This document shows positions 31,046 to 38,859 of a stretch of 43,382 nucleotides of DNA, piece by piece. The position numbers and the translations under genes are program-made. The number at the start of each line of letters is the position of its first letter. Position 1 is the stretch's first letter. The stretch lies in NCBI GenBank assembly GCA_964354805.1, contig CAYHBD010000043.1, forward strand, positions 1 to 43,382, read 5' to 3'. The notes below the pieces were generated by a model. That model did no database searches, was not told the origin of the DNA, and saw only the letters and a program-made list of their open reading frames with translations. Origin of the DNA: an uncultured archaeon (GTDB lineage: Archaea; Iainarchaeota; Iainarchaeia; Iainarchaeales; GCA-2688035).

Positions 31046-31987
31046 TCAATGCCCCTTAAACCGCTTTATTGTTTTAAGCAACCCTTGCTGCAGTGAAACC
31101 TTTGGTTTCCACTTCAGTTGCTGTTGCGCAAGTTGTATGCAAGGCTTCCTTTTCTCAGGGTCGTCTTGCAATGCTGGCTTGAAAACAATGGCAGAACTGC
31201 TTTCGGATAATTTTTTAATCAATTGCGCAAGCTGCAAAACAGTTATTTCATGGGGATTCCCCAAATTCACCGGCATATTGTAGTTGCTTTCCATCAGCCT
31301 AACAAGTCCGGCAACAAGGTCTGTTACAAAGCAAAAGGACCTCGTCTGTTCGCCGTTTCCAAAAACAGTCAAAGGTTGCTGCAACAAGGCTGCATTGATG
31401 AAGGATGGAACAGCCCTGCCATCATCTTTTCTCATCCTCGGCCCAAATGTGTTGAAAATCCTCGCAATCCTTGTTTGGGCATTGAATTTTCTATTATAGG
31501 TCATTACCAATGCCTCAGCAAAACGCTTGCCCTCGTCATAGCAGCCCCTTGCACCGATTGGATTAACATTCCCCAGATAAGTTTCTCTCTGCGGGTGCTG
31601 CAATGGGTCGCCATAAACCTCGCTTGTTGAGGCCTGCAAAAAAATTGCATTCTTTTCAACAGCAAGGTCAAGCATGTTTTTTACGCCAACGCTGTTCGCC
31701 AACAAAATCTGCAAAGGAATTTTTGCGAAATCAGCAGGCGAAGCAGGACTGGCCAAATTATACACTTGGTCAATGCTTTCATCAAGTTTAAGTGGCTTTG
31801 TTATGTCATGCTCAATCAAGGAGAAGTTTTTTTCAGCAACCAAATGGCGGATATTTTCTTTTCTGCCTGTGACAAAATTGTCAACGCAAACTACTTTGTT
31901 TCCCTCTTTCAGCAGGGTTTCGCACAAATGGCTGCCGATGAAGCCAGCTCCGCCTGTTACAACAATGCTTAAACCACTGCTTTTCAT
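31046..31987 (-). CDS. uxs: UDP-glucuronate decarboxylase (UDP-xylose synthase)
   Basis: [67 protein letters not shown]. Confidence 0.9.
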
Positions 31988-32059: not shown

Positions 32060-32794
32060 TCAAGGCACAAATTGTTTTCTCGCTCTCTCAAGCGCTGCAG
32101 GCCATCCAATGTCAAACCATTTTTCAAAATAAGTGTAGCCATACACAACGCTGTTTTCAATCAGCCAAATCATGAAATAACCCATTTTGTCAGCATTGTT
32201 CCCTTCAGCAATAAAGCGGTGCAATAATCGCACCTTTTCTCGCGGAAAGAAGTAAATTCCAAGCGAGGTAAGCGTGCTCTTCGGATTTGGGTCTTTCTCC
32301 TGGAACAAAACGAATTTTCCGCCCTTGCCAACAACAGCAATGCCCTGCTCCCTTGCAACCTCCATGCTTTTGCTGTCCCACAACGCATTCACAATTGCCC
32401 TCTTTTTCTTAAAGAAATTGAATACAGGCAGCAGGCCGAAATTGTACAAATTGTCTCCGGCAACAACAAGCAGGTCATCGTCAATCTTTTCCCTTTCAAC
32501 CACAAGCTGTATGTCCCCAACCTGGCCGAGCCTGTCATCGTTGCTTGTTGTGCCGTCATTCAAAATTTTTATCTGCAGTCTTGATTTGAAACCTTTAATC
32601 CACTCGCTGAAATTTTTGAAAAACCTTGCATTTGTAACAATAAAAACCCGCTCAACACCAGGCAACTGCTCAATCCTGTGAACAATGTGTTCAATGATTG
32701 GCTTTCCCTTAACATCAAGCAGCGCCTTTGGCTTATCCTTAGTCAAAGGATAAAGCCTTGTTGCATAGCCGGCCGCCGGAATAATTACCTGCAT
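32060..32794 (-). CDS. Sugar-1-phosphate nucleotidyltransferase
   Basis: AAGYATRLYPLT..PKALL, AGDN, WFDIG. Confidence 0.9.
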   Translation of the reverse strand: MQVIIPAAGYATRLYPLTKDKPKALLDVKGKPIIEHIVHRIEQLPGVERVFIVTNARFFKNFSEWIKGFKSRLQIKILNDGTTSNDDRLGQVGDIQLVVEREKIDDDLLVVAGDNLYNFGLLPVFNFFKKKRAIVNALWDSKSMEVAREQGIAVVGKGGKFVLFQEKDPNPKSTLTSLGIYFFPREKVRLLHRFIAEGNNADKMGYFMIWLIENSVVYGYTYFEKWFDIGWPAALERARKQFVP

Positions 32795-32892: not shown

Positions 32893-34200
32893 TTACAGCC
32901 TTCCGATGCTAACGTAATTGAAGCCAAGCTGCCTGAGCTTGGCCGGGTCAAAAATATTCCTCCCGTCGCACACAACAGGCTGTTTCATCAATTCCTTCAC
33001 TTTATTGAAATCAATTTTTTTGAACACGCCCCATTCCGTCAGAAAAAGCAGTGCATCAGCATCTTTTGCAACCTCATACATATCATTGCAGTATTCAATG
33101 CCTGGCAGGATTGCTCTTGCCCTCTCCATTGCCTCAGGGTCAAATGCCTTGACCTTTGCACCTTCTTTCAGCAACTCATTGACTATGTCAATGCTGGGCG
33201 CAAAACGCATGTCATCAGTGTCGGGCTTAAAAGCCAAACCCAAAACACCGATTGTTTTCCCGTTCAGAACCCACAAAATGTCCTCAACCTTTTTTACAAA
33301 CAAGCGCCTCTGCTGCTGGTTTATTTTCTGCACCTCTTTCAGCAAAGCAAAGTCATAGCCGCTTCTTTCCGCAATCCAAATGAATGCATCAACGTCTTTC
33401 GGGAAGCAGAAGCCGCCATAACCAAGGCCTGCATTCAAAAAGCTGGGTCCGATCCTTTTATCCAGGCCCATTCCCAAAGCAACTTCCTGCACGTTTGCAC
33501 CAGTCTTCTCGCAGATGTTCGCAATTGCGTTAATGAAGCTTATTTTCGCCGCGAGAAAGCTGTTTGAAGCATGCTTAATTATCTCTGCGCTTTTAATATC
33601 AGTAAAAACAATCCTTGCTTTCAGCGGCGCATAAAGTTTTTGCATAACAACACGGGCCTCTTCGCTGTTCGTGCCAATAACAATCCTGTCAGGGAACAAA
33701 AAGTCTTCAACTGCGCTGCCCTCCCGCAAAAACTCAGGATTGCTCACAACCATGTGCTGAATGCATTTCCCGGCTTTGGCGTGAGCATTGCTGCAATGCA
33801 GAATCTGCTCAATCCTCTCGCCTGTAAGCACAGGCACAGTGCTTTTCTCGACAACAATCTTTGGCTCGGTTGCGATTGCGGCAATGCCCCTGGCAACATT
33901 TTCCACAAAGCTTAAGTCAGCGCCGCCATCCTGCCTCGGCGGTGTTCCGACTGCAATGAAAATCGCTTCACAATGCTGCACTGCTTCCCTGAAATCCGAG
34001 GTGAAACGCAGCCTTCCGGCCTTTGCGTTCTTTTTAATCAGCTCCGGCAATCCGGGCTCAAAAATCGGGCAATTGCCGCTGTTCAACACCTTAATTTTTT
34101 TCTCATCAATGTCCTGGCAGACAACATCGTGGCCCATGTCAGCAAAGCAGCCTGCGGCAACCAGGCCGACATAGCCCGCCCCTATAACGCTGATTTTCAT
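32893..34200 (-). CDS. ugd: UDP-glucose 6-dehydrogenase
   Basis: GAGYVG, AVGTP, KSTVP, SNPEFLREG, KHASNSFLAAKISFIN, GYGGFCFPKD, FKPDTDDMR. Start MKISVIG at 34200; the track start is 34245. Confidence 0.95.
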   Translation of the reverse strand: MKISVIGAGYVGLVAAGCFADMGHDVVCQDIDEKKIKVLNSGNCPIFEPGLPELIKKNAKAGRLRFTSDFREAVQHCEAIFIAVGTPPRQDGGADLSFVENVARGIAAIATEPKIVVEKSTVPVLTGERIEQILHCSNAHAKAGKCIQHMVVSNPEFLREGSAVEDFLFPDRIVIGTNSEEARVVMQKLYAPLKARIVFTDIKSAEIIKHASNSFLAAKISFINAIANICEKTGANVQEVALGMGLDKRIGPSFLNAGLGYGGFCFPKDVDAFIWIAERSGYDFALLKEVQKINQQQRRLFVKKVEDILWVLNGKTIGVLGLAFKPDTDDMRFAPSIDIVNELLKEGAKVKAFDPEAMERARAILPGIEYCNDMYEVAKDADALLFLTEWGVFKKIDFNKVKELMKQPVVCDGRNIFDPAKLRQLGFNYVSIGRL

Positions 34201-34304
34201 TTGCCGCACCGTAAACCATTCTGAATTTAAAATTAAATCCTGCACCAGCCCTGTTTAATGGCCGATGCAAAAAGGCAATCCGGAATTAAATTGGGACAGA
34301 AGCC

Positions 34305-34348
34305 TTTAAATATATTACTAATTCATATAATGTATGAAAAGGTATGAA
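34305..34348 (+). promoter_or_regulatory. TATA box plus candidate RHH operator
   Basis: TTTAAATA 34305-34312; TCATAT 34323-34328; GTATGA 34332-34337 and 34342-34347. Confidence 0.55.
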
Positions 34349-34388
34349 TAGAGGCAGGGGCAATCAGCACAATTAGAGGTGAAGTTGC
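34344..34388 (+). repeat. Decayed upstream duplicate (45 nt) of the RHH gene 5' end, carrying the SD
   Basis: atg aat aga ggc agg ... aca att aga versus gene atg aac agg ggc agg ... aca atc agg; ends in GAGGTGA just before ATG 34389. Confidence 0.8.
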
Positions 34389-35204
34389 ATGAACAGGGGC
34401 AGGGTAACTATTACAATCAGGAATGACCTGCTGCAGCAGGTTGACAGGCTGGTTGACGGATTGAACATCAGGAGCAGAAGCCAGGCTGTCGAATTTTTGC
34501 TGAGCAAGTTTTTGTCTGATTACAGGGTAAGGGATGCATTGATTCTTGCAGGCGGCAGAAAGCGGGACATAATATTGCAGGGCAGGGCAAAATTTTTGGC
34601 TGACATAAACGGAAAAGCCCTGCTGCAAAGGGTCATGGACCAGATGAGCGGATTCCGGATAAACAATTTCATTGTCTATGTTGACAGCGAAGCAGAGCAG
34701 ATAATGCAGGCAGTGCAAAGAAGCAGCCTGCCTTATAATGTGGATTTCATTGCCGGAAAAAAGCCGAGCGGAACAGTGCAGCCACTGCTGTTGGCTAAAA
34801 GCAGGTTAAGCGACACCTTTCTTGCAGCATACGGCGATACTATAACAAACCTTAACCTGAATGACATGCTTTCTTTCCACAGGAAAAACGGCAGCATTGC
34901 AACAATTGCCCTTACAACAGTGAGCAACCCAAGGCAGTATGGGGTGGCGGTTCTGCAGGGCAACAAAATTGTCGAGTTCGAGCAGAAGCCAAAGCGGGAA
35001 GCCCACAGCTTTTTGATCAATGCAGGGATTTTTTTGTTTGAGCCTGAAATTTTCAAATACATCGGAAGAAAAATGCATGACTTGGAGAAAGAGCTTTTCC
35101 CGCACCTGGCTGAAAAAGGCCTTCTGTACGGCTACCCGTTCCAGGGAATTTACCTGAACGTGAACACTAAAGCGGACCTGGATAAAGCAAGGGCGCTACT
35201 GTAA
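34389..35204 (+). CDS. Ribbon-helix-helix (NikR/CopG-type) domain fused to a degenerate sugar nucleotidyltransferase domain
   Basis: N-terminus RVTITIRNDLLQQVD...RSRSQAVEFLL; then LILAGG, YGD, QYGV, EFEQKP, INAGIFLFEP; the GxGTR loop is absent. Confidence 0.85.
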   Translation: MNRGRVTITIRNDLLQQVDRLVDGLNIRSRSQAVEFLLSKFLSDYRVRDALILAGGRKRDIILQGRAKFLADINGKALLQRVMDQMSGFRINNFIVYVDSEAEQIMQAVQRSSLPYNVDFIAGKKPSGTVQPLLLAKSRLSDTFLAAYGDTITNLNLNDMLSFHRKNGSIATIALTTVSNPRQYGVAVLQGNKIVEFEQKPKREAHSFLINAGIFLFEPEIFKYIGRKMHDLEKELFPHLAEKGLLYGYPFQGIYLNVNTKADLDKARALL

Positions 35205-35316: not shown

Positions 35317-36288
35317 ATGCAAACCAAAAAAAAGCACAAACCATTGGCTTCACTTACCCAAACAGCTCAAGCCTCTCTCGAATACCTTCTTACATATGGC
35401 TGGGCCTTGATTCTAATTGCAACAATTGTGGGAATCATAGTTCTAATAACCGCAACTCCTGGCGGATACGCCTGCAGCGGAACAGGCGACCTAATATGCA
35501 GGGCACTGGGAGCAGAAGGCGAAGACCTAATCCTCACATTCCAAAACAAGCTGCCGTTTGACATAATCATAAACCCATTCACCGGCATTGCATTTGACGG
35601 CAGAACGGGATATGCATCAATCAGTTACAGGGGCAAAGAATACAGATTTGAAGAAGCAACAATCGCAAAAGGAGACACATTCACAATAACAGGAATAGGC
35701 TTGGGAGCCGCAAGCACAATAACCATAACATACACAGAAACAGCAACAGGCTTTGAAAAAACATGGACAGGAAACATAAGCACACCACAGGAAGAAATTT
35801 GCAACGATGGAATAGCAAACACGCCGAGCGGAGAAGTGGACGTCCTGAACCCAGAATGCGAAGAAACAACATATTTATTTACGCCGCCGGCACCTGGGGC
35901 GGGGGAGGAGTTTTTTAACATAAACTCCGACCAAGGCACAGGCATAAATTTAAACCCAATCACAGGCGACCCCTATAATGGAAAAGTGAAGGTCATATCA
36001 GCTGAATTTTCATTTTATATTATTGATATTATTGGAGATCCACCCCTTAGGGCAAATATTGGTCACCAAGAGTATGCAGACATAGCGAGGTGGAATTGGC
36101 AGGATGCTGAAATGTTGGAGGACCTTAAAGAAGGGTGGAATTATTTACCATTGGTCCCAGAGGAAACAAAGGATTCATTGCCAGGGTATACATTATTTAG
36201 CTTCGAGGGGCAAGAGGAATCTTACACAATTGCTTGGGGGAGTTCACCCAATGCACCAAAACTGACAGTGAAGGTAAAAAGCTCATAA
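35317..36288 (+). CDS. Class III signal peptide (type IV pilin-like) surface protein
   Basis: Basic leader, then TA|QASLEYLLTYGWALILIATIVGIIVL. Confidence 0.8.
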   Translation: MQTKKKHKPLASLTQTAQASLEYLLTYGWALILIATIVGIIVLITATPGGYACSGTGDLICRALGAEGEDLILTFQNKLPFDIIINPFTGIAFDGRTGYASISYRGKEYRFEEATIAKGDTFTITGIGLGAASTITITYTETATGFEKTWTGNISTPQEEICNDGIANTPSGEVDVLNPECEETTYLFTPPAPGAGEEFFNINSDQGTGINLNPITGDPYNGKVKVISAEFSFYIIDIIGDPPLRANIGHQEYADIARWNWQDAEMLEDLKEGWNYLPLVPEETKDSLPGYTLFSFEGQEESYTIAWGSSPNAPKLTVKVKSS

Positions 36289-37367: not shown

Positions 37368-37414
37368 ATGGACCTGGGAATAAAGAAAGCATTCATTCTG
37401 GCAGGTTGGTCTGA
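37368..37414 (+). repeat. Upstream duplicate (47 nt) of the nucleotidyltransferase 5' end
   Basis: MDLGIKKAFILAG versus gene MGIGISKAFILAG. Confidence 0.88.
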
Positions 37415-38188
37415 ATGGGCATTGGAATAAGCAAGGCATTCATTTTGGCTGGAGGCTTGGGCACTCGGTTAAGGCCTGTTACTTATGAGCTTAGCAAGCT
37501 TATGCTGCCAGTGCAGGGAAAGCCAATACTGCAGTGGAACATTGAGCTTGTTAAAAGATTCGGCATCAGTGACATAACTCTTGCAGTAGGCTTCAAGCAC
37601 GAGCAAATCCAGCAATTCTTTGGAAGCGGGGAAAAGCTTGGCGTAAAAATTCACTACAACATTGAGAAAGAATACATGGACACAGCAGGTGCATTGCGTA
37701 TTGCGGAACAGCATTTAAAGGGAGAAAAAAAATTCATTGGAATGAACGGCGATGAATTGAAGGACATTGACTTCAGCGCAATGAGCGCAGTGCATGAAAA
37801 AAACAATGCGATTGCAACAATTGCATTGGCCAGTGTTCCGTACAGGCACGGCGGCGGCGTAGTGAAAACAGAAGGAAACATTGTTACTGAATTCAGCGAA
37901 AAGCCTGCTGACGAGCAGCCTGGAAACAAGCTGATTCACGCAGGCGCATACATCCTCTCGCCGGAAATTTTTGGATTCATTGAAGGGGGCAAAAAAGTCA
38001 GCATTGAAAAGGAAGTATTCCCGCTGCTCGCTGAGAAAGGCAGGCTGTGCGGAGTTGACATGGCAGGCAGGCAGTTCCTGCAGACAGACAACTTTGAAAG
38101 ATACGAAAAAGCAATTTTCGAATGGAAGGGATTTTCAGCAAACGGCAAAAACAAAAAGATTGAACAAATCCAAAAGAGCGAAGAATAA
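37415..38188 (+). CDS. Sugar-1-phosphate nucleotidyltransferase (Man-1-P guanylyltransferase-like)
   Basis: LAGGLGTRLRPVT, DTAGAL, NGD, FSEKP, AGAYIL, SIEKEVFP. Confidence 0.9.
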   Translation: MGIGISKAFILAGGLGTRLRPVTYELSKLMLPVQGKPILQWNIELVKRFGISDITLAVGFKHEQIQQFFGSGEKLGVKIHYNIEKEYMDTAGALRIAEQHLKGEKKFIGMNGDELKDIDFSAMSAVHEKNNAIATIALASVPYRHGGGVVKTEGNIVTEFSEKPADEQPGNKLIHAGAYILSPEIFGFIEGGKKVSIEKEVFPLLAEKGRLCGVDMAGRQFLQTDNFERYEKAIFEWKGFSANGKNKKIEQIQKSEE

Positions 38189-38328: not shown

Positions 38329-38859
38329 TTGGATCTTGCTAAAAAAATCAGGACTGTTCCGCATTTCCCGAAGAAGGGAATAATGTTCAAGGACATTACC
38401 ACGCTGCTGCAGGACAGCGCTGCTTTCAGGCAGGCGATTGATGCTTTGGTTGAATACTTCATGAAAAAGGATTTGCATTTTGACAAGGTTGTCAGCACTG
38501 AAAGCAGGGGCTTTATTCTTGGCGCTGTAATGGCTTATGAGTTCCACGCCGGCTTTGTTCCGCTGCGAAAGCCGGGAAAGCTGCCGTACAAAAAAATAAG
38601 GCAGGAATTCAGGACAGAGTACAGCACTGATGCCTTTGAAATACATAAGGATGCAATAGAGAAAGGGGAAAGCGTTCTGATTGTTGATGATCTCTTGGCC
38701 ACATCGGGGACAGCTCGGGCTGCGGTGGACTTGGTAGAAAAGTTAGGCGGGAAGGTAAATGGCATTGCATTCCTAATAGAATTAACTTTCCTCAAAGGCA
38801 GGGAAAAGCTAAAAGGATATGATGTTTTTTCCTTAATAAAGTATAATAAAGAAGAATAA
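38329..38859 (+). CDS. apt: Adenine phosphoribosyltransferase
   Basis: FPKKGIMFKDIT, ESRGF, RKPGKLP, LIVDDLLATSGT. Confidence 0.95.
   Translation: MDLAKKIRTVPHFPKKGIMFKDITTLLQDSAAFRQAIDALVEYFMKKDLHFDKVVSTESRGFILGAVMAYEFHAGFVPLRKPGKLPYKKIRQEFRTEYSTDAFEIHKDAIEKGESVLIVDDLLATSGTARAAVDLVEKLGGKVNGIAFLIELTFLKGREKLKGYDVFSLIKYNKEE

Follow-up and report, generated by a model that had tools for sequence, protein, structure and literature searches.

Several metabolic enzymes, among them PutA, BirA and NadR, are fused to DNA-binding domains and repress their own pathway, the domain in PutA being a ribbon–helix–helix (RHH), and GalF is a non-catalytic sugar nucleotidyltransferase paralogue that is used as a regulator. 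To our knowledge, the sugar-1-phosphate nucleotidyltransferase (NTase) fold is unreported in the role of an enzyme-fused repressor. GMPPA is described as a paralogue without catalytic activity, which binds GDP-mannose, the product, and acts as a feedback regulator of GMPPB (PMC11228364). Among proteins of solved structure, the closest to the N-terminal domain considered below is NikR (Escherichia coli, 1q5v/2hzv; Pyrococcus horikoshii, 2bj1), whose operator in E. coli reads GTATGA-N16-TCATAC (PMC7055735).

The gene described here lies in a window of 43,382 nucleotides, the whole stretch of DNA that was analysed, from an uncultured archaeon of the Iainarchaeota (contig CAYHBD010000043.1). It occupies positions 34389–35204 of the forward strand, where an intact open reading frame encodes 271 amino acids plus a stop; Pfam, full-length homologues and an AlphaFold2 model support its description as an RHH joined to an NTase fold. 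Proteins of this kind were grouped by head and loop: type A, to which this one belongs, has an RHH and a degenerate signature loop, types B and W have an RHH and an intact GxGTRLxPxT loop, and type C has the intact loop and no RHH. The earlier note had known of no characterised regulator with such an architecture, and a literature search for RHH–nucleotidyltransferase fusions, with subscription journals outside its coverage, likewise found no published description.

The type A protein resembles NikR in its RVTIT strand and in the GTATGA hexamer found at its promoter, and thus the same hexamer goes with the same strand in both. There is also a likeness in logic, with an RHH followed by a C-terminal ligand-binding or oligomerising domain and repression at a promoter, which is predicted here. 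However, NikR carries the nickel-binding, ACT-like NikR_C tetramerisation domain where type A carries a PF00483 fold; the two NikR half-sites are 16 bp apart, whereas type A has three adjacent boxes with N3 and N4 spacers; and the ligand of NikR is nickel while that of type A is presumably a sugar nucleotide. Judged by its C-terminal domain and its box spacing, the type A protein is not NikR. With GMPPA, a structural neighbour, it shares the features of an apparent NTase-fold pseudoenzyme with an altered signature loop that stands beside a catalytic paralogue, here the gene at 37415. GMPPA and GalF act by protein–protein allostery and have no DNA-binding domain, whereas the output of type A would be transcription, and the C-terminal beta-helix domain of GMPPA is absent from type A. 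Like PutA, BirA and NadR, the protein joins a DNA-binding head to a metabolic enzyme domain and appears to be autoregulated, and types B and W look like proteins of this kind, but the enzyme part of type A is without the catalytic signature and would represent a derived, sensor-only form.

Architecture of the protein and its signature loop

The fusion of an N-terminal RHH with an NTP-transferase fold, which had been proposed from the translation, is supported by Pfam, by a family profile and by the AlphaFold2 model. PF00483 (NTP_transferase) matches residues 50–244 with 73.4 bits against a cut-off of 21.2, and the complete NTase-fold domain, the proposed sensor, takes in residues 50–271 (34536–35201) by PF00483, Foldseek and conservation tables. 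The RHH domain (residues 5–42; 34401–34514) is matched weakly by RHH_1 in single-sequence hmmscan, over residues 5–40 with an E value of 0.0045 and 17.3 bits, below the 20.5-bit cut-off; in the genome scan the same model gave 20.1 bits alone, just under that cut-off, and 20.8 bits with neighbours in frame. A family profile built from 32 N-termini and searched against the PDB matched the N-domain of E. coli NikR (1q5v/2hzv; E 7e-6), Pyrococcus horikoshii NikR (0.024) and CopG (0.075). The beta-strand reads R-V-T-I-T-I, of which RVTIT is identical to E. coli NikR, and a single-sequence alignment covers NikR residues 3–41; R5, T7, R30, S31 and E35 are invariant in alignments of the family RHH. 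The AlphaFold2 model of the 271-residue protein, made from 118 homologues (pLDDT 93, pTM 0.81), places an extended segment at residues 5–10 and helices at 12–21 and 30–41 (pLDDT 79–92) ahead of a Rossmann-like enzyme fold. The beta-alpha-alpha topology of an RHH is therefore present, with the strand unpaired in the monomer model, as expected, and by sequence match and topology alike the N-terminal domain belongs to the RHH fold. From the conserved operator described below we infer that it dimerises and binds DNA sequence-specifically through paired strands.

The closest Foldseek matches of the enzyme fold were the GDP-mannose pyrophosphorylases VTC1/GMPPB (E 3e-20) and the non-catalytic GMPPA (7d72_A, TMq 0.73). 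The GMPPA and GMPPB chains run to 350–407 residues, of which only about 230–247 columns aligned to the type A domain. The type A protein ends at residue 271, right after the NTase domain, and the C-terminal left-handed beta-helix of GMPPA and GMPPB is absent.

Reading of the translation gives LAGGRKRDI in the place of LAGGxGTRL, exactly as the earlier note had claimed. After LAGG the loop continues RKRDIILQGRAK where xGTRLxPxTxxxPK would be expected, and the whole degenerate loop, GGRKRDIILQGRAK (residues 55–68; 34551–34592), replaces GGxGTRLxPxTxxxPK. Assignments of loop and RHH across the family rest on aligned residue tables together with a reading of the N-termini, and the table used here set 113 type A sequences against 80 intact-loop relatives. 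Residues G58, T59, R60 and T63, at least 95% conserved in the 80 relatives, are free across 113/113 type A sequences, among which no residue is conserved at positions 58–66 and the length of the loop varies too. Pairwise identity in the signature loop is 18% for type A vs 71% for the intact relatives; for the remaining enzyme domain it is 52–61% vs 65%, and for the RHH, the most conserved part of the type A protein, 69% vs 55%. Several pocket residues are retained: position 68, where the PK motif has its lysine, carries K in 87 sequences and R in another 23 (together 110/113), D150 of the GD motif is kept in 111/113 and K200 of EKP in 113/113, and G128 is also retained. The position of E199 is Q in the 271-residue protein. 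T151, N180, N257 and N259 are new clade-wide fixations in type A, replacing E, D, D and G respectively, and G131 is replaced clade-wide. One of these changes was considered as proof of inactivity and rejected as a diagnostic: position 257, the second metal-binding Asp (W-x-D-x-G), is N in 113/113 type A sequences, but also in 12/80 intact-loop relatives.

In these alignments the loop is lost and the rest of the domain is kept, which is the pattern of a domain with some specific remaining role and not one of decay. The NTase fold is present and the signature loop G-x-G-T-R-[LFM]-x-P-x-T, with its catalytic Arg, is not; on this comparison the type A protein is not a bona fide nucleotidyltransferase, and canonical catalysis has probably been lost. 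Some residual nucleotide chemistry is conceivable because K68, D150 and K200 are retained and the loop is still basic.

A predicted three-box operator beside a UDP-xylose operon

A TATA-like box, TTTAAATA (34305–34312), and a Shine-Dalgarno-like GAGGTGA (34376–34382), 6 nt before the ATG, were read from the forward strand upstream of the type A gene; the TATA-like box has the same layout in orthologous loci and is presumed to act as the TATA box of the gene's own promoter. The predicted operator (34323–34347, forward strand) has the sequence TCATAT-AAT-GTATGA-AAAG-GTATGA, in which the three boxes, at 34323–34328, 34332–34337 and 34342–34347, have centre-to-centre spacings of 9 and 10 bp. Box 1 begins 18 nt past the first T of the TATA-like box, and the operator overlaps the predicted transcription start. 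An operator was found in 19/19 type A loci, 17 of them clear (24–41 bits with a position weight matrix, PWM) and two of weaker or rearranged form (L039 at 17.7 bits and L047 at 23.0). As a negative control, 16/16 related loci with ugd–NTase–uxs but without a type A gene were devoid of any PWM match of at least 12 bits. Orthologous loci show the TATA box, then the palindrome, then the third box, with unconserved flanks, and in eight of them (L036, L037, L044, L045 and L048–L051) the start codon lies inside box 3. In the closest relative (G062, locus L035) a methyltransferase gene is inserted between the operator and the RHH gene, and the operator is still at the promoter beside ugd. We note that the inserted open reading frame (L035:7390–7990) is SAM-methyltransferase-like and that the RHH–NTase gene there is apparently the second gene of an operator-controlled two-gene unit.

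Similar boxes accompany the relatives with an intact loop. Type B promoters carry TCATAA-N3-ATATGA-N4-TTATGA between the TATA box and the ATG, and in Woesearchaeota and Aenigmatarchaeota at least two boxes lie within 136 nt of the start in 58/78 loci, at a modal spacing of 10 bp; the density of boxes in those 78 loci is 13.8 per kb vs a background of 1.29 per kb. From their distribution the boxes are a trait of the RHH–NTase family and not of type A alone. Where A and B paralogues share a genome, strand residue T9 changes to N9 together with a change of the outer box base from G to A or T; this joint change is a single evolutionary event, and it hints at a divergence of specificity between the paralogues. 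We consider it very probable that the type A RHH binds GTATGA-type boxes. That a separate NikR might bind the boxes was considered and rejected, as the assembly (88.5% complete) contains no NikR_C (PF08753), and the two RHH proteins that it encodes besides type A both have strands other than RVTIT. Most of the Woesearchaeota relatives (L055–L134) have tandem TCATAC boxes immediately upstream of the BRE/TATA and not downstream of it. Whether the bound protein represses or activates may therefore vary within the family, and the head domain in Woesearchaeota may act in another mode, by activation or by blocking TFB.

The neighbouring operon, on the reverse strand, begins with ugd (32893–34200), which is of the UDP-glucose 6-dehydrogenase type by Pfam and TIGR03026 (469 bits). 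Its second gene (32060–32794) encodes an intact sugar-1-phosphate nucleotidyltransferase with the loop AAGYATRLYPLT..PK, and its third is uxs, for UDP-glucuronate decarboxylase (31046–31987), to which NCBIfam gave no such name but which a PDB sequence search matched to human UXS1 (2b69, 4gll; E 1e-105). By these matches ugd–NTase–uxs is a module leading from UDP-glucose through UDP-glucuronate to UDP-xylose. An intact paralogous nucleotidyltransferase of type C, with the loop AGGLGTRLRPVT, is encoded at 37415–38188 on the forward strand. The two intact nucleotidyltransferases and the divergent arrangement of the type A gene with ugd–NTase–uxs that had been read from the window are thus as described, both signature loops being whole.

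The start of ugd is most likely the ATG at 34200 (MKIS...) and not the GTG at 34245, which makes the intergenic region about 188 bp long. Type A is divergent from ugd in 20/20 loci examined, and uxs is present in 31/33 genomes with type A vs 74/215 across the phylum, these being related genomes and not independent samples. Many relatives run the ugd operon without the regulator, and the operon is therefore independent of the type A gene. In most orthologues the ugd start codon lies 49–87 nt from box 1, so that both promoters must share that space, and ugd of the orthologues often has a Shine-Dalgarno-like leader. Here 122 nt separate the ugd ATG from box 1, more than in the orthologues, and ugd appears to possess a TATA-like element of its own near 34226–34238, some 85–95 bp from the operator. 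Direct control of ugd here, although plausible, is a weaker proposal than in the orthologues. The chances that the type A protein controls ugd at all seem to us evenly balanced.

Control of a whole glycan locus, as the earlier note had envisaged, is too broad a claim and was rejected. The operator PWM has an information content of 26 bits, and in the whole 1.38-Mb assembly the type A site scores 32.4 bits and the next independent match 14.0; the palindrome TCATA-N5-TATGA occurs once in the assembly, as does the tandem GTATGA-N4-GTATGA, and scans with the PWM and with exact patterns found no second operator elsewhere in the window or the assembly. With a single operator, any control would be of its own gene and at most of the divergent ugd–NTase–uxs operon.

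Three further features of the neighbourhood may be recorded. Directly upstream of the 37415 NTase start, a short open reading frame (37368–37414, ATGGACCTGGGAATAAAGAAAGCATTCATTCTGGCAGG...) reads MDLGIKKAFILAG, with a stop immediately before the real ATG; MDLGIKKAFILAG nearly repeats the N-terminus of that gene itself, MGIGISKAFILAG, as though the start of the gene had been duplicated. Downstream of the type A gene, at 35317–36288 (forward strand), lies an open reading frame of 323 amino acids with no Pfam or NCBIfam match, the N-terminus of which (…TAQASLEYLLTYGWALILIATIVG…) resembles an archaeal class III (pilin-type) signal peptide, and its product may be a surface protein and a possible substrate of glycosylation. 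An adenine phosphoribosyltransferase gene, which passes the NCBIfam equivalog threshold, lies at 38329–38859 (forward strand), and many relatives show it in synteny with the 37415 NTase.

Distribution and descent of the family

Homologues of full length (about 270 amino acids) number more than 110 and come from Diapherotrites/Iainarchaeota, Aenigmatarchaeota and Woesearchaeota. When 50%-identity representatives were searched exhaustively, 13,854 matches were returned; among the best 150 of these, about 130 include the RHH by matched range, most of them with a non-canonical loop. The RHH–NTase architecture is present in well over a hundred 50%-identity clusters, one of which has a member from the CPR (Berkelbacteria). 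Those members that have names are labelled 'sugar phosphate nucleotidyltransferase', 'NDP-sugar pyrophosphorylase' or 'mannose-1-phosphate guanylyltransferase'.

In a tree built solely from the enzyme domain (82 rows; quick search, with SH-aLRT values as the one measure of support), the degenerate type A clade is monophyletic (99%), has a long stem and is nested among RHH-bearing intact enzymes, and type C (98%) is sister to the RHH-bearing intact type B (96% jointly). The genomes of family f4 have types A and B at a distance of 2 kb, and there the orthologue of the 37415 gene is type B, which still bears an RHH. Since RHH-bearing relatives with an intact loop occur in three DPANN phyla and share the same promoter boxes, the fusion is evidently old, and the enzyme from which the degenerate form arose already bore the DNA-binding head. 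The topology of the tree indicates that the fusion preceded the decay of the loop, which happened once in the type A lineage, and that the 37415 gene descends from a form that lost its RHH.

Two observations on relatives concern the same history. Five loci without type A (L149–L153, in G058, G057, G100, G108 and G095) have, divergent from ugd, an intact NTase with no detected RHH, a type C gene like that at 37415, a position which suggests that type A arose in place from a type C-like gene. In a closed 1.24-Mb genome, a relative matching residues 23–268 of P0001 (G083:C1:541893–542642) has two in-frame TAG codons, which may point to a pseudogene or to recoding.

A former enzyme domain as a proposed sensor

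We propose, with a probability of about 0.62, that the type A protein is an autoregulated, local one-component RHH transcription factor in which a former enzyme domain serves as sensor and oligomerisation module. RHH dimers would bind the three GTATGA-type boxes, one helical turn apart, at 34323–34347; as box 1 starts 18 nt past the first T of the TATA box and the three boxes overlap the transcription start, a protein bound there should obstruct RNA polymerase at the promoter of its own gene and so bring about autorepression. Binding would probably also affect the divergent UDP-xylose operon, given the 49–87 nt between the ugd start codon and box 1 in most orthologues. The C-terminal NTase fold, without the catalytic GxGTR loop, would have been kept as a ligand-binding or oligomerising module, and the sensing of a nucleotide-sugar or a sugar-1-phosphate, at best guess UDP-xylose or UDP-glucuronate, would tune the binding of DNA. 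That DNA binding is tuned by a ligand has, in our estimate, slightly better than even odds.

One alternative is that the protein is a bifunctional enzyme–repressor in the manner of PutA, BirA or NadR, which still makes a nucleotide-sugar by way of a non-canonical basic loop and represses its own gene. Such a protein is likely to have been the ancestral state, intact GxGTRL relatives bearing the same RHH and boxes, and in type A the residues K68, D150, K200 and G128 are kept, the loop is still rich in K and R, and one orthologue (L045) has a half-canonical loop, GGKDSRMFPLT..PK. For the type A protein itself we nevertheless regard this as unlikely: a loop of 18% identity and variable length, with nothing conserved at 58–66 in 113 sequences, is hard to square with catalysis, the invariant GTR arginine has disappeared, the whole clade has other residues in place of G131 and of the acidic E151 and D180, and intact paralogues able to do the chemistry sit in the same loci. 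The structural neighbours bring in another possibility, namely that the RHH does no more than autoregulate and that the dead domain works through contact with a catalytic enzyme, be it the nearby NTases or Ugd, after the fashion of GMPPA and GMPPB, or is a mere oligomerisation scaffold, with no ligand switch in either case. The Foldseek neighbours of the domain, GMPPB/VTC1 and the non-catalytic GMPPA, would fit, GMPPA being a non-catalytic protein that binds GDP-mannose and regulates GMPPB (PMC11228364); moreover, a catalytic paralogue is always nearby and three adjacent boxes require higher-order oligomers. However, the C-terminal beta-helix domain of the GMPPA and GMPPB chains is missing, and the conservation of the pocket residues K200, D150 and G128 together with new clade-invariant polar residues suits a small-molecule site better than a pure scaffold, and we give this possibility the same small chance as the previous one.

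It is far less probable that the protein is a normal enzyme, its N-terminal extension being of no consequence, and that the GTATGA boxes are promoter elements or are bound by another factor. The database name, sugar phosphate nucleotidyltransferase, and the single-sequence Pfam match of the RHH, below cut-off, would agree with an ordinary enzyme, but the RHH is the best-conserved part of the protein, the boxes co-occur strictly with RHH–NTase genes (19/19 vs 0/16, across phyla), no other NikR-like RHH was found in the assembly and the catalytic loop has been lost.

The reading of type A as a sensor-only transcription factor bears on organisms in which regulation is hard to study. The genomes of DPANN archaea are tiny and encode few recognisable regulators, and these organisms have no genetics; a regulator for which operator and target are predicted and the candidate ligands are few is immediately testable in vitro. 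If the proposal is true, the sugar-1-phosphate nucleotidyltransferase would be a new sensor fold among one-component transcription factors, and the family would offer a clear case in which an enzyme–repressor has divided into a plain enzyme and a regulator that is a pseudoenzyme. Since named members of the family carry the names of enzymes, reconstructions of metabolism in these organisms are likely to include too many nucleotide-sugar enzymes and to overlook a regulator. More tentatively, and at somewhat less than even odds, the RHH–nucleotidyltransferases may be a large undescribed class of nucleotide-sugar-responsive factors in ultra-small archaea, and possibly in the CPR, which would have begun as enzyme–repressors that made a sugar nucleotide and repressed their own gene. 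Repeated duplication would then have split them into a sensor-only regulator (type A) and a plain enzyme (the gene at 37415), and type A may be the main switch by which these regulator-poor organisms match supply to demand for the sugar precursors of their cell surface.
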